IMG/VR virus record: IMGVR_UViG_3300029721_000031
Strand: one strand, 5' to 3'
Origin: a virus
Lineage: Duplodnaviria; Heunggongvirae; Uroviricota; Caudoviricetes
DNA: 10,183 nucleotides
Below the pieces are notes generated by a model. The model had not been told where the DNA came from, did not search any database, and saw only the letters and a program-made list of their open reading frames with translations. The position numbers and the translations under genes were made by a program. Of the stretch, positions 3,344 to 8,521 are shown piece by piece; the stretch's first letter is position 1; every line of letters begins with the position of its first letter.

Positions 3344-6300
3344 TTAGCCACTTAACATTCCCCCATCACGTCGCATATTTAACAGATTGCCCTGCACCCG
3401 CTGATCAACCATCCCCATAAGTGCTTTTATTGCCTGAGGGCCAATCTCTCCATTCTGGCCGTCATTTTGAATAGTGATTTGGTATACAGGGGCATAGGTA
3501 ATATCTCCGCCTCCATTACCACTTTTACTATTAACAGCTCTGACACCAAGAGAACCATCGGAAGTTCGTGTTAATGGCATAATGGCTTCCGGACCAGCCT
3601 CACCAAAAACACCAGCCCCTCTTGCAAAAGCAAAAAATTGCGGGGAATCATAAATACCGTTCGAATACGTGTTCAATGACGGAGACTCATAAACACCGCC
3701 CTTTGCATTCGGAATAAATTTACTAATAGCACTCCCGATAGTTCCTAAAATCCCCCCAGAAGAACTGTTACTAATGCTGTCGAAAATCCCAGTAATTGAA
3801 GCCTTTAATGCTATTCGACTAAGATCCGAAATCACGGAAGTAGCGAAAGAACGAAAATTTGCTTTGCCTGTCGTGACAAAATCACCCAGCGCATCGGTCA
3901 TTCCATCAAACATCTGAGTCGTGGTTGATTTTATCTGCTCACTGATATCCTTAGTGTCATCCAGCCAGTTATTGAATCCCTGGGAGGCACCACTAACCCA
4001 GTCTCCTGCCTGAATATCGAGCTGCTCGTTTTTCTGTCTGACAATTTCTTTTTCTCGTTCCAGAGCATCATTCAGAGCCTGCATTTTCTCCTGAAAAACA
4101 TGATTTGACATCCCACGGGATTTATCTGCATAGTCACGTTCAAGTTGCAGACGCTGATTGTTATATTCACGTTCAATCCGCAGTAATTCCTGCTGGCGTT
4201 GCTGATTTTTATCGCCAACCCCATAACCAGCAATCTGAATATCATACCCCTGTTGACGATTATCAATCGAAGCCTGCAATGAATCACGCCATGCAGCTAT
4301 TTCGGCTGATTCCTTGATTAGCCTGTTATTTTTTTCAATCGCAACATTTTTCTCCATCAACGCGGTTATTTCTTCCCGGTGTAAGAGAAGCGATTTCTGA
4401 TCCTTGGTTAATTTCGATGACGGTCGTGACTCCAGGTCGGCAATCTGCTGACGCCACTTAACCAGTTCCTGTTCAGAGGAACTTAATTTAACGGTTAATT
4501 CAGTTTGTGAACTTAGTAACGCATTCTGTTGATTCAGATGATCAATCATTCGTTGGGCAGCATCATCCGAATAACCTTTCGCCTTTGGTTGCTTTGGATC
4601 TTTATAACGCTCATTTATTTGAGCGATAAGATTATTATATTCTTCCTTTGAATACTGACTCTTTAGTTTTTCCAGTTTTGCAAGTTCACTAGCTCTCTGC
4701 TGCTCCCGGGTCTGATATTGTTTTGAAAAGGCATCTGCTCTCTGTCTGAGTTCAATTCCTTCCTGTTGTCGCTTGTTGTAATCGTTTATTGATGAATTTA
4801 GTACGTCCTGAGCAATTTTTTCTGCTTGAAGTACGCCCAATTGCTGCTTTAATCGTGCCAGCCTTTTATTTTGAGCTCCGCCATCTCCAATGCCACCTAA
4901 CCCGAAAACTCCGGGTCGGGTATTTTTTTCTATTTCATCAATTTGACGGAGAACATCTGAGATTTTTTGATCAAGGGAGGCCTCACGGCCAATATCCAGC
5001 ATGGAATCCCATGCCCATTTTGCGGAGTCTGCGACAGCTTTCCATGCAGTCTCAAGATAACCAAGATTTTCTTTAATCTGGTTGGTGCGCTGGATCATTG
5101 AGGATGAGTATGCTTCTGTCGCAATGCGGGCGGCCTCCTGCTGGTTCCCTTCATCCTGTAGCGCCTTAATCTGGTTATAAGTCGCAATTGTCAGAAAATG
5201 GTACTGATCATTAAGTTTTGATATGGCACTGACAGGATCCTTTGCAATTTCATTGAAGTCATTAACCAGTTGTTCGGTTGATATTCCTGTTACTTCGCTC
5301 GTTTTTACTATCGCTGTCGTCACTTGCTCCAGCGAACTGCTCGCTACCTTTCCCGAACGCACAAGCTGGTTTAATACTGCCGCCGCAGCGCCAGTTGTCG
5401 AATCAGCCGCATTCCCGGCACGTTGAACTATATCGGCCAATTGCCCGCTGGTTGTCCCCAACTGATTTCCGGTAAGAATAAGAGACTTATTAAATTCGTC
5501 CTGCTCCTGAGAGCCTTTATAGTAAGCCAGCCCTAAGACGCCAACGGCTGCTGCGGCCAGGGTAAAAGGATTAATTAATCCCAGCACATAAGAACCAACA
5601 CCTTTGATCGCCGGGCCAATCCCACCGAACATATCTTTTAGCTGGCCGCCCTGCTGCATTAACACCATAAAAGGCGACTGACCAGTGGACAACCCAACAA
5701 CAATATCCGTCATTTGTGCAGGCAACATGCGCATAGCAAAAGCCGTTTGTTTTGCCGACATTCCGGTTTTGCTTAATTGAGATTGAGTAACCTCAAGCTC
5801 ACTCCGCATAGCACGAAGTTTTCCAGAAAGTTCCTCATACATTTCAGGAGAGAGCATCCCCTTAGCTTTTGCTTCATTGAGCTGTTTCTGTTGTTCTACC
5901 AGACGATTAAAAGCAGTTCCGACAGGGTCAAGTTGAGCAATCAGACGTTGCAAAGCAGCAACCTGTTCATCATGCGCTTTTGCTGCTTCTCGCTCTGCCT
6001 GAGCCTCTCCGGTAAGCTCTCGCCGTGTTTCCTGTATTTTTCGGCTATAATTCTCAAACTGAGAACCATTTATTTTCCCGGATGCAAACGCAGCATTAAG
6101 TTCATCCTGCTGTTGTTCAAGATTTCTTAGCGCCGCAGCCAGAGGGTCGATCTTGTCCAGCATTCTTTGAAAGGCCTGAGTCTGCGCTTCCTGCTGGGCG
6201 GCAGCAAGTTTTCCGGCCTTCTCGGCTTCTCTCTGCGCTTGCGCAACCCCGCTCAATTCCTCTGTGGTTTCATTAAGTTTACGGACAAGAAATTCATATT

Positions 6301-6577
6301 CTTCTTTATCAATAAGCCCTTTATCGAAAAATTTCTTTAATTCAGAATAGCGTCGACCGACAGTATCAATTGCGGCACCAACTGGATCAATAGCTGCTTT
6401 TAATTTTGCGAGCGCGTTCTTCTCATCTTCTGTTGCCTTAGTCACTTTCCCTGCGCTATTTGCAGCAGTTTCCCCGGCCTGCGTCATTTTGACTAATGAG
6501 GAGGTCAGATTGTCAGCATTATTTTTTGCTCCAGTGCTATCAATAATTATTGCGAGACGCGAGGTTTGCTCTGCCAT
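3344..6577 (-). CDS. H: Tail tape measure protein (1077 aa), lambda H-like core with an N-terminal repeat extension
   Basis: Long coiled-coil-rich ORF. Segments [59 protein letters not shown], and the C-terminal [38 protein letters not shown] resemble lambda gpH as I recall it. It sits between G-T and M. Start ATG at 6577 with GGAG 9 nt upstream. Confidence 0.92.
5777..6391 (-). repeat. Three tandem in-frame repeats (~73-80 aa each) in the tape measure N-terminus
   Basis: Protein repeats begin IDPVGAAI (aa 63), IDPLAAAL (aa 143) and LDPVGTAF (aa 216). Each is followed by similar helical segments, e.g. [16 protein letters not shown] vs [16 protein letters not shown]. The corresponding DNA motifs (actggatcaatagctgc, agggtcgatcttgtcc, agggtcaagttgagc) are visible on the plus strand. 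Confidence 0.6.
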
Positions 6578-6600
6578 TTATTAAAACTCCAGACAACAAA

Positions 6601-6620
6601 AAGCCCACCGAAGTGGGTTT
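6601..6620 (-). terminator. Terminator-like hairpin (5-bp GC stem, UUCG tetraloop, U5 tract) 24 nt upstream of the tape measure start codon
   Basis: Minus-strand RNA reads AAACCCAC UUCG GUGGG CUUUUUGUUGU. It lies within a 163-nt non-coding spacer (6578..6740) between the T stop and the TMP start. Confidence 0.4.
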
Positions 6621-6740
6621 CAGGCGACATAATAGTAGATATAGCGATTACGAGGCCACGCAATGCTTTTCTCCAGGAGCATCATCGATTTAATTAAAGA
6701 CACCATCACATCTCTGTAACAGAGTGTACGTAATTAACAA

Positions 6741-7061
6741 CTACACACACTGCTCCTGAAAATACTGGTCATCCAGTGCAAAGATCACTGCTTCAAACTC
6801 ATCGCGCTCAATCAATACCGGATGAGTGGCTAAATATTCATTTATCTCTGTCAGAGATAAAGGCAAAGGCACCCCGGTCATTCCAGCATAACGTCGGGCA
6901 CGGGATATTACCGAATAGGCGTACAACAATTCCTTAAGCACCGGGTCTATTTCTGGTTCCGGTATCGGTGGCAACCTGAGTTTTTCTCGCTTCCATCTTG
7001 CCTTTTCCCCCCTTTCTCCCCCGAACTCCGATAACCACCGCTGGGCGGCTATGGCTTTTTT
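6741..7061 (-). CDS. T: T extension of the G-T fusion chaperone, reached by programmed -1 frameshift from G (no ATG of its own)
   Basis: The -1 frame relative to G is open from 7085 to the TAG at 6743..6741 and has no ATG start (the ORF track begins it at a TTG, 6974). A -1 slip at A_AAA_AAG would give ...DTIKK-AIAAQRWLSEFGGERGEKARWKREKLRLPPIPEPEIDPV...QEQCV, a G-T product of about 255 aa. Confidence 0.7.
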   Translation of the reverse strand, partial: KKAIAAQRWLSEFGGERGEKARWKREKLRLPPIPEPEIDPVLKELLYAYSVISRARRYAGMTGVPLPLSLTEINEYLATHPVLIERDEFEAVIFALDDQYFQEQCV

Positions 7062-7510
7062 ATCGTATCCTGCTTCTGCTGCTCTTTACCCTGGGCGATG
7101 CTGGCTGCTTCTGCAAGGATCTGCCAGTACAACTCTGGATTCTGCTTAAGCAGCGCGATCCCTCGTTCTGGCGTATATTCCAGTGCAACCTCAGCACCAT
7201 TAACCAGTTCACCAACCCCTTTCCAGTCTTTCAGCAGATAACGAGCAGCATTATCAATGAGTAAATCATCAACAGAATCTACCTCGGAAACCTTTGAAAT
7301 ATCAAACTCCTTCGTTCCGACGTGCAAACTGGCATCCATTTTCTCAATGTGACGACGGATTAATGCATTACGGGAGCGATACTGATCGTTATCGCTGCTT
7401 GCCACCAACAGTTTTAACCCGTCTATAGGTTTTAAGTCCTTCATTGGCGTAAACCAGCGTTCTCCACCGATGATAATTTTCTGATTAAGAATAAACATCC
7501 ATAACCTCAT
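7049..7510 (-). CDS. G: Tail assembly chaperone G (153 aa from ATG at 7510; alternative start ATG at 7498 gives MFILNQ...)
   Basis: Small acidic ORF immediately downstream of the major tail gene and upstream of the tape measure, i.e. the conserved G position. It ends ...QDTIKKP with a slippery heptamer spanning its last codons. Confidence 0.75.
   Translation of the reverse strand: MRLWMFILNQKIIIGGERWFTPMKDLKPIDGLKLLVASSDNDQYRSRNALIRRHIEKMDASLHVGTKEFDISKVSEVDSVDDLLIDNAARYLLKDWKGVGELVNGAEVALEYTPERGIALLKQNPELYWQILAEAASIAQGKEQQKQDTIKKP
7055..7061 (-). promoter_or_regulatory. Putative -1 ribosomal frameshift slippery heptamer A_AAA_AAG
   Basis: Minus-strand sequence gat acg ata aaa aag cca tag: the heptamer A AAA AAG occupies the last two Lys codons of G, one codon before the G stop. 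The same heptamer type is used by E. coli dnaX. Confidence 0.65.
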
Positions 7511-7519
7511 TCAATGCGT

Positions 7520-7546
7520 CCCCCTGTAGTGCAGTACCACAGGGGG
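7520..7546 (-). promoter_or_regulatory. Strong hairpin in the V-G intergenic region whose 3' arm overlaps the predicted G Shine-Dalgarno
   Basis: Inverted repeat CCCCCTGT(7520..7527) / ACAGGGGG(7539..7546). On the transcript the stem can extend to ~11 bp with one G-U pair and a 5-nt loop. The 3' arm ACAGGGGG ends 9 nt before ATG 7510. No U-tract follows, so it is not a canonical terminator. Confidence 0.45.
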
Positions 7547-7558
7547 AATAACGGAAAA

Positions 7559-8521
7559 TCAACTAATCGCATCAGCACTGGCTTTTGCGATCACGGCAGT
7601 CGGGGAGCATTTTTTTCTGGTTATCGTAGGTGCTTCATCTGCTGCGGTAATGCTCAATTGAACCTGGATAATGTCAGTATTACCCCCATCAGGCCATTCA
7701 CCTGACACCTGAACCTTCGGGAAACTGAAAGTGTATGCCCCCTCTCCATTCGAAAGCGTGAAGCTGAACGGAACTGTTTCTCCAGTCAGTGTTTTACTCC
7801 AGATTTCCCACGCGGCTTTAGACCATGAAAGCGTCACCGTACCGGACGGTGTAAAAGTAGTCGGAATATTTGCTCCTGCATAAGGCGAGCCAGTCCCGAT
7901 ACAACGCTGTGTCTGGAGTTTGTTATCGAACTGAATATCAAAACTGTCGATACAAAAACCGTTACCTCCGGCAACACCATTCAGGCTTACTGCTGAAACC
8001 GCCTTAAACGAATAGCGTAACTTTCCTGCACTATCCACAGGTTCGCCTTTGATAAAATTCGTATCATCGGCCTTTGATTCCCAGCCCAGCCCGGCAAAGG
8101 TTACGGTCGCTGTAATATCGCCGTCGTTAGGGATCTGCATTTTCCATGAGCCAACCTGCGCTCCTCTGACGACAGAGGCAATTCCGACATCGGACGCATA
8201 GGTCGCCAGAGAAAATGTTATTCGCTCATTCCCCATTGTCAGAGAATCGCCTGACCATTCCGCGCCGAAACAGGATGCAAGAAAATCATCATGTTGACCC
8301 CAGCGAAATTTGGTACCAACATCACCGCCGACATCCACAGTGCCAGGCGTCGCCCCCTGAGCCATCCGGGAGCCACCAATCTCATTATTTTCGCCTTTAT
8401 TCTGGGTGGGTTTTACTCCCCAGCTTGTGCGTTTTAATAAACTCCAGTCACCACTTGCTGGCGTAGTGCCTGCAACTGTCTCCCGGATAAATGCCGAGAT
8501 AACCTTTGCACCTGAACTCAC
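7559..8521 (-). CDS. V: Major tail (tube) protein, V-like (320 aa)
   Basis: Position immediately upstream of G/G-T. Gly/Thr/Ser-rich beta-type composition typical of tail tube proteins. GTG start at 8521 preceded by TAGGAGG with a 5-nt spacer. The family assignment is by synteny and composition, not a verified motif. Confidence 0.75.
   Translation of the reverse strand: MSSGAKVISAFIRETVAGTTPASGDWSLLKRTSWGVKPTQNKGENNEIGGSRMAQGATPGTVDVGGDVGTKFRWGQHDDFLASCFGAEWSGDSLTMGNERITFSLATYASDVGIASVVRGAQVGSWKMQIPNDGDITATVTFAGLGWESKADDTNFIKGEPVDSAGKLRYSFKAVSAVSLNGVAGGNGFCIDSFDIQFDNKLQTQRCIGTGSPYAGANIPTTFTPSGTVTLSWSKAAWEIWSKTLTGETVPFSFTLSNGEGAYTFSFPKVQVSGEWPDGGNTDIIQVQLSITAADEAPTITRKKCSPTAVIAKASADAIS

Follow-up and report, generated by a model that had tools for sequence, protein, structure and literature searches.

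The spacer between the tail chaperone and tape measure genes of a Rac-like prophage as a probable accessory-gene slot closed by a putative terminator

The window is a stretch of 10,183 nucleotides from a viral record (IMGVR_UViG_3300029721_000031) which, judged by its sequence, is a Rac-like lambdoid prophage and is 98-100% identical to induced E. coli siphophages including vB_EcoS-666R9. According to the list of open reading frames the whole operon of the window lies on the minus strand. A tube gene is followed by a G-like tail assembly chaperone, a homologue of YdaY, whose 3' end (...GAT ACG ATA AAA AAG CCA TAG) contains the slippery heptamer A_AAA_AAG (7061..7055). Past the heptamer the -1 frame stays open for 106 further codons up to a TAG stop at 6743..6741, and this extension corresponds to T in a G-T chaperone pair; the annotations of both Acinetobacter phage TRS1 and HK97 include an equivalent frameshifted CDS. 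The next gene, with its ATG at 6577..6575, is annotated as the tape measure protein (TMP) in every matching record. The spacer between the T stop codon and the TMP ATG (6578..6740) measures 163 nt and is the largest intergenic gap of the operon, in which all other junctions overlap or are at most 48 nt long. The features of the locus are as follows.

8521..7559, minus strand: tube gene (Pfam Phage_tube_2).
7049..7510, minus strand: G-like tail assembly chaperone, YdaY homologue (translation of the open reading frame; YdaY in matching phage and E. coli records).
7055..7061, minus strand: slippery heptamer A_AAA_AAG for the -1 frameshift that yields the G-T fusion, read from the sequence.
6741..7061, minus strand: T extension of the chaperone in the -1 frame and left border of the slot (translation; weak Pfam Phage_TAC_18 match).
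6621..6740, minus strand: filler of about 120 nt, including a palindrome at 6712-6724 and a 28-codon open reading frame at 6706..6620, without a detectable gene, promoter or homologue.
6598..6620, minus strand: intrinsic-terminator-like hairpin (AAA)CCCAC-UUCG-GUGGG with a bulged C and UUUUU (terminator scan, folds, covariance model).
6578..6597, minus strand: TMP translation-initiation region GUUGUCU-GGAG(6590-6587)-UUUUAAUAA, which together with the T-run forms the conserved right border of the slot (alignment A4).
3344..6577, minus strand: tail tape measure gene (TMP), 1077 aa, the downstream neighbour of the slot (open reading frame and translation).

The hairpin consists of a 5' arm CCCAC (6617..6613), a UUCG loop (6612..6609) and a 3' arm GUGGG (6608..6604), and is followed by C6603, by UUUUU (6602..6598) and then by the GGAG ribosome-binding site at 6590..6587 ahead of the TMP ATG. 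The stem holds four GC pairs and can be extended by A-U pairs across the bulged C. The U-tract of this allele reads C-UUUUU-G-UU and is of the weaker form; most relatives have 6-8 U directly abutting the stem. The 163-nt gap, the hairpin with its C-UUUUU and a palindrome (CTCTG-tta-CAGAG, 6712..6724) were first pointed out in the initial annotation, and all of them lie where it placed them. The folding calculation that it proposed does return a hairpin, of -8.7 kcal/mol, though 13 of 200 shuffled sequences fold equally well. The fold of the spacer as a whole is not significant (z = -1.19), terminator-like motifs occur in the window about as often as expected from shuffles (10 vs 9.5), and no covariance model of Rfam 15 matches anywhere in the window at E<=1. 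The GC content of the spacer (41-44%) forms no clear step against the flanking 100-nt windows, which range from 30% to 58%. The hairpin by itself is unremarkable, and its significance comes from the relatives.

Other structures in the spacer were considered and rejected. Pairing of an upstream CUCC with the GGAG of the TMP gene is present in the minimum-energy fold and is unsupported, the cargo at this position being different among relatives. The palindrome is broken by an A to C change in two loci (L054, L055), has no counterpart in relatives and is attributed to chance. A bidirectional terminator is unlikely; the opposite strand folds at -10.5 kcal/mol, but just UUU precedes CAGG there. A separate hairpin lies on the minus strand in the 48-nt gap (7511-7558) between the tube stop (7559) and the chaperone ATG (7510). 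It has a strong 12-bp GC stem (CCCCCUGUGGUA...CUACAGGGGG) without a U-run, gives -23.9 kcal/mol (z = -2.8) when folded within 66 nt, and its 3' arm overlaps the likely Shine-Dalgarno sequence of the chaperone. It may serve to control translation or the stability of the message between the most abundant tail protein and its chaperone.

Relatives of the T domain (35-100% identity by tblastn, 49 phage records) were used to collect the corresponding loci from annotated phages, from IMG/VR and from one genome per species, and both the T stop and the TMP start could be placed in 105 loci, helped by a conserved TMP N-terminus of the form MxEQ[TS]SRLA[IV].... A strict terminator rule, which demands a perfectly paired stem of 5 or more pairs, 3 or more of them GC, a loop of 3-9 nt and at least 6 T in 8, recognises a terminator in 50 of 56 distinct upstream sequences from Enterobacterales, Pseudomonas and Acinetobacter. 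Of 6308 control windows taken on the same strand of these loci, 74 (1.2%) pass. The end of the stem is 18-27 nt from the TMP ATG in the relatives. Four of the misses (L005, L080, L109, L123) fail on the T count only, either because A-U pairs absorb the T-run or because there are just five T, one (L033) has a mutated stem pair, and one (L070, shared with L075) has a genuinely weak hairpin; in five of these six a hairpin and T-run can be seen by eye. In every locus examined, the ~50 nt that lead up to the TMP ATG follow a common plan of a GC-rich hairpin, 5-8 T, an (A)TTGCCCGGAGA-like ribosome-binding region and the ATG, of which the T-run, TTGCCCGGAGA and the ATG are nearly invariant from E. 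coli to Acinetobacter (alignment A4). Because its position is conserved among relatives, the hairpin is non-random. The initial annotation called the spacer with this hairpin unusual, but a terminator directly ahead of TMP is the rule within this phage family.

The stems vary. There are at least 12 distinct stem sequences among the relatives, each of them self-complementary, such as CCCAC/GUGGG, CCCGC/GCGGG, CCUCGC/GCGAGG, GCCCGG/CCGGGU, GGCCGCG/CGCGGCU, GGCCCCGC/GCGGGGCU and CCGACC/GGUCGG. A covariance model derived from alignment A4 matches the element downstream of T in every one of the 66 family loci searched, and has a single match in the window, at 6576-6627 with 44.7 bits. Double-sided changes amount to 18 cells vs 5.2 in shuffles, a value exceeded in 0 of 500 shuffles of an alignment which, being fitted to the model, leans towards structure; the overall paired fraction is just 78% because stem length and register vary. 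With its stem-loop, its U-tract and a structure that selection appears to have maintained, the element may be classed as a putative Rho-independent terminator. Like canonical terminators with a C(UUCG)G loop it is intergenic and lies on the transcribed strand, with a stem rich in GC, the stable cUUCGg loop and a U-run on the 3' side. It differs from them in its short stem of 5 GC-rich pairs, in the C that precedes the run of 5 U, and in its location inside an operon that needs read-through.

A second site is matched by the covariance model in prophages of Acinetobacter and Pseudomonas, roughly before the tube gene and ~1.5 kb upstream of T (L111/L112:2539-2579; L116:2413-2465; L118:2412-2464; L120:2430-2484; L121:2431-2483; L123:2430-2481; L125:2436-2490; L126:2417-2469; L115:2540-2596). 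Phage TRS1 has extra genes and annotated terminators there, and the site suggests a second accessory-gene slot with the same design of right border.

The DNA that the hairpin closes off differs widely. Across the 105 loci there are 59 distinct versions, in which the T stop and the TMP ATG lie 36 to 2979 nt apart, with between 0 and ~3 kb between the T stop and the hairpin. Empty slots of 36-45 nt, which hold the hairpin and ribosome-binding site alone, occur in Pseudomonas (L105, L107), Erwinia phage Gungnir39, Scandinavium and IMG/VR viral contigs with enteric-type sequence. Filled slots carry one to five genes, nearly all in operon orientation, that fall into 59 protein clusters. By Pfam these include an Ail/Lom outer-membrane protein, KilA-N, a P22-type antirepressor N-domain, GNAT, a zinc-ribbon membrane protein and a SocA/Panacea antitoxin with a partner open reading frame (toxin-antitoxin), and many of the other cargo proteins have lipoprotein signal peptides as judged by eye. 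This content is typical of prophage accessory ('moron') loci.

Junctions of two kinds are seen at the hairpin. The same hairpin is found with different cargo (L068 vs L073; L081 vs L103), and the same T-run and ribosome-binding backbone is found with different hairpins (L061, L068, L072, L080). Since both kinds of junction occur, the hairpin itself is a recombination boundary. In comparison with a diverged Rac-type lineage the window contains a near-identical patch from ~6850 to 6605, with 2 differences in 245 nt, that covers the last 110 nt of T plus the filler and has its right edge at the hairpin. Outside the patch the divergence is ~10% upstream and ~9% over the first 90 nt of the TMP gene, and differences from this lineage cluster at the terminator (6604-6591). 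A mosaic joint had been one of the readings offered for the spacer at the outset, and it is borne out by the 36 to ~3000 nt that relatives carry at this junction and by the patch at 6605-6850, which ends exactly at the hairpin. After ...FALDD the final 9-20 residues of the T domain are different in every lineage (alignment A2), and the Rac-type T C-terminus (window 6741-6850) belongs to the same mosaic patch as the filler. The variable T C-termini and the shared patch thus place the left recombination border inside the coding end of T and not at its stop codon.

The spacer is also present in E. coli K-12. A search among lambdoid prophages, as proposed in the initial annotation, finds it 98% identical in the ydaY-ynaA(tmpR) intergenic region of the K-12 Rac prophage and in 1046 of 5426 complete E. 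coli genomes, with a single copy per genome. K-12 Rac is a cryptic prophage that differs from the window in the deletion of its head genes and in its truncated TMP gene. The T stop and filler (6622-6745, 124 nt) are 100% identical between the window and K-12 Rac, and the four changes in a 201-nt region are all located within ~25 nt around the hairpin (window 6591-6612; L002:4410-4445), where the window has UUCG for the K-12 loop UUCGCG, C for U after the stem and U for A before GGAG. Among spacer variants with identical flanks the T-run varies from 5 to 8. The clustering of allele differences at the hairpin is due either to selection acting on the strength of the terminator or to slippage at a local mutational hot spot. 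In the K-12 allele the UUCGCG loop and GUGGGUUUUUU produce a perfect 10-bp stem of -12.8 kcal/mol. Folding energies are -12.5 and -12.8 kcal/mol for the alleles in which U follows the stem and about -10 to -18.3 kcal/mol for relatives; the window allele, with a C between stem and U-run, is the weakest fold of the family and may terminate poorly. Over the 201 nt, about 221 of the 1046 E. coli genomes match the window version at 99% identity or more.

The spacer is on balance probably the Rac-type version of a hypervariable moron slot, bounded on its right by a Rho-independent terminator that shields the tail genes from transcription in the prophage state and is read through with the help of Q. 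In this layout the terminator precedes the TMP ribosome-binding site by ~20 nt. In the lysogen, ordinary RNA polymerase coming from upstream promoters, be it those of accessory genes such as trkG or spurious starts, would terminate at the hairpin and U-run, so that TMP and the tail-tip genes would remain unexpressed. Q-modified polymerase that started at the late promoter would read through the hairpin during lytic growth. The terminator, T-run and ribosome-binding site would at the same time provide a fixed boundary for the exchange of cassettes by recombination. Read-through, or leakiness, is required because TMP and the distal tail genes have no other evident promoter, and it is also needed because the terminators of empty slots sit in a 36-45-nt gap amid essential tail genes.

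Lambda Q renders RNA polymerase resistant to intrinsic terminators. The evidence for Q comes from an intact relative, ON470614.1; the window does not extend as far as the Q region. This phage is lambdoid, and its genes come in the order integrase, recET, cI/cro-like, O/P-like, Q-type antiterminator, lysis, trkG, terminase, head and tail. Its Q protein (16207-16749) matches DUF1133 and Phage_antitermQ (27.4 bits, cut-off 26), and we infer from the gene order that the tail genes depend on Q. In K-12 Rac, trkG is an expressed accessory gene just upstream. [quoted passage not shown] The underlying model probably also weighs intergenic distance, and the gap is long, so that the score offers weak support for termination at the hairpin. 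The portions of the K-12 Term-seq and TSS tables that were available contain no entry in 1426262-1426599, where the Rac tail genes are barely transcribed, which makes them uninformative. The available part of a supplementary table (PMC7815308) lists an 'antisense' feature inside ynaA/tmpR at K-12 1426769 (-), equivalent to window ~6262 on the plus strand. This feature is taken to be a transcription start that points towards the spacer; on its strand just UUU follows the stem, and the hairpin is not an obvious terminator for that transcript.

A rather unlikely alternative, already among the options of the initial annotation and with several points in its favour, is that the tail operon has in this hairpin an attenuator or RNA-stability element of its own. 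Even in lytic growth it would terminate part of the transcription, or it would shield the upstream tube and chaperone message from 3' exonucleases; in either case the abundant tube and chaperone would be made in excess over the few-copy TMP and tip proteins, and the insertion of cargo would be secondary. The element is retained in the cargo-less slots of several genera, and insulation explains such terminators less naturally than a built-in regulatory role does. It is located between high-copy (tube, chaperone) and low-copy (TMP, tip) genes, the T-run and ribosome-binding site are conserved from E. coli to Acinetobacter, and the late-gene clusters of SPP1 are likewise described as delimited by putative terminators. 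Internal attenuators are known to set the stoichiometry of operons, as T7 T-phi does after gene 10 and as is found in rplL-rpoB, where partial termination has been measured. These resemble the window in having a terminator between highly and weakly expressed genes of one transcription unit, but the terminator of the window is predicted from sequence and the intact relative has a Q antiterminator. The presence of this antiterminator in an intact Rac-like phage argues against strong termination during lytic growth, but not against a role in stability. Hairpin strengths that range from -8.7 to -18.3 kcal/mol among alleles would not be expected of a finely tuned dosage device. A role in attenuation or stability and a role in insulation are not mutually exclusive. 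A tentative and similarly doubtful possibility is that the terminator did not arise as a by-product of morons but is a conserved backbone 'docking' device of the tail-module family across Gammaproteobacteria, placed directly ahead of the TMP ribosome-binding site, which would set the ratio of tube and chaperone to TMP, or the stability of the message, in lytic growth and would in addition offer a fixed and transcriptionally insulated landing pad.

It is improbable that the spacer is a neutral leftover in which hairpin and filler are scars of cassette exchange and the terminator of the window is already decaying. The mismatch or bulge and the weak fold of the window allele would fit such decay, as would the further stem damage in the prophage copies L033 and L036 and the concentration of the window/K-12 differences around the hairpin. 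The distance to TMP is nevertheless constant, and stems that are different in sequence but intact are found across Enterobacterales, Pseudomonas and Acinetobacter, empty slots included.

The filler has no homology to the cargo of 47 other slot variants (blastn-short, tblastx) and no matches in plasmids or other E. coli contexts. It is at least 99% identical in 1044 of the 1046 E. coli genomes, always in the same context. Its identity of 98-99% to the diverged Rac-type lineage, compared with 90-96% in the flanking genes, was considered as a sign of selection and is explained by the mosaic patch, which also covers the end of T. A consensus scan detects no sigma-70-like promoter on the coding strand in or just upstream of 6578-6740, and the sole nearby match (6734-6763, 9/12) is on the opposite strand. 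The 28-codon open reading frame (6706..6620) encodes MVSLIKSMMLLEKSIAWPRNRYIYYYVA, has a poor Shine-Dalgarno sequence and stops 0-2 nt ahead of the hairpin. Across 12 spacer variants its ATG is lost in four, where a GTG one codon upstream remains, and the other changes are one TGG to TGA nonsense, one Pro to Leu and one synonymous; the 28-aa peptide has been called in three contigs and two database entries only. This pattern of variation and the lack of homologues speak against a gene. YnaM, a known small protein of Rac, was rejected as a product of the spacer, being located between ynaE and ttcC instead, and a partial match in E. coli ET734 that had looked like a natural breakpoint is really an IS1 insertion. 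In this locus (L008, 1789-2593) IS1 lies in the spacer at window ~6652 and the TMP gene is rearranged, showing that in a decaying prophage the filler can be disrupted. The filler is read as an orphan remnant or minimal cassette that is apparently non-coding.

The least probable reading, and a very unlikely one, is a tiny live moron that expresses the 28-aa peptide or a terminator-ended small RNA from the prophage: an open reading frame that ends directly before a hairpin is a typical gene-plus-terminator layout, the segment is highly conserved in 1044 genomes and a few annotations call the peptide, but the start loss, nonsense and missense changes outweigh the sole synonymous one, conservation is equal over the adjacent coding end of T, there is neither a coding-strand sigma-70-like promoter nor a good Shine-Dalgarno sequence, no homologue occurs in the other slots, and ydaY is not mentioned in the main text of two K-12 small-protein papers. 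A small RNA, which the initial annotation had entertained, likewise finds no support in Rfam or in the promoter scan, and the available K-12 tables, for a region that is poorly expressed, list no TSS or 3' end. Its suggestion of the site of a degraded moron fits best, as the slot corresponds to the position of HK97 gene 15 and the filler has no homologue, promoter-like site or credible gene.

HK97 gene 15 was the first element to be called a moron; morons carry their own promoter and terminator, which permits expression from repressed prophages (PMC3594210). The gene 15 moron and its terminator have been described previously (Juhala et al. 2000; Cumby et al. 2012; reviewed in PMC3594210). In the HK97 record the stop of the frameshifted chaperone (GT) is followed by gp15, by an annotated putative terminator (GACCCGC-UAUCA-AGCGGGUUUUUUUU) and, 12 nt later, by the TMP ATG. 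HK97 and the family of the window have in common a slot between a frameshifted chaperone (the G-T analogue) and TMP in the context of a lambdoid late operon, and a right edge made of a GC hairpin and T-run 12-27 nt before the TMP ATG. They differ in that HK97 has a real gene there, for a 62-aa membrane protein (gp15) with a good ribosome-binding site and, by the general statement on morons in the review, its own promoter. The TMP and ribosome-binding site of HK97 are not homologous to those of the window, and the covariance model has no match in HK97. Of the hallmarks of a moron the window displays extra DNA between genes that are adjacent in relatives (163 nt, compared with gaps of 36-45 nt) and, putatively and by sequence, a factor-independent terminator at the downstream end; by the consensus scan it shows no promoter of its own, and it has no convincing cargo gene. 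The window therefore holds a nearly empty slot or remnant and not a live moron. The feature is an HK97-type architecture in another tail-module family, which makes it a known design and no new kind of element.

For the window itself this means that an odd-looking gap is ordinary phage genome architecture, and the breadth with which Gammaproteobacterial prophages conserve a terminator that closes the slot is a by-product of modest interest. The presence of the spacer in E. coli K-12 makes the distinction between insulation and tuning of the tail-protein ratio testable in a standard strain. Accessory genes have a hot spot at the chaperone/TMP junction in E. coli, Klebsiella, Erwinia, Pseudomonas and Acinetobacter prophages, which makes this junction a practical place to seek prophage-borne defence or conversion genes. 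If the terminator does act as a docking device, the G-T/TMP junction would be a preferred site at which such genes are acquired.
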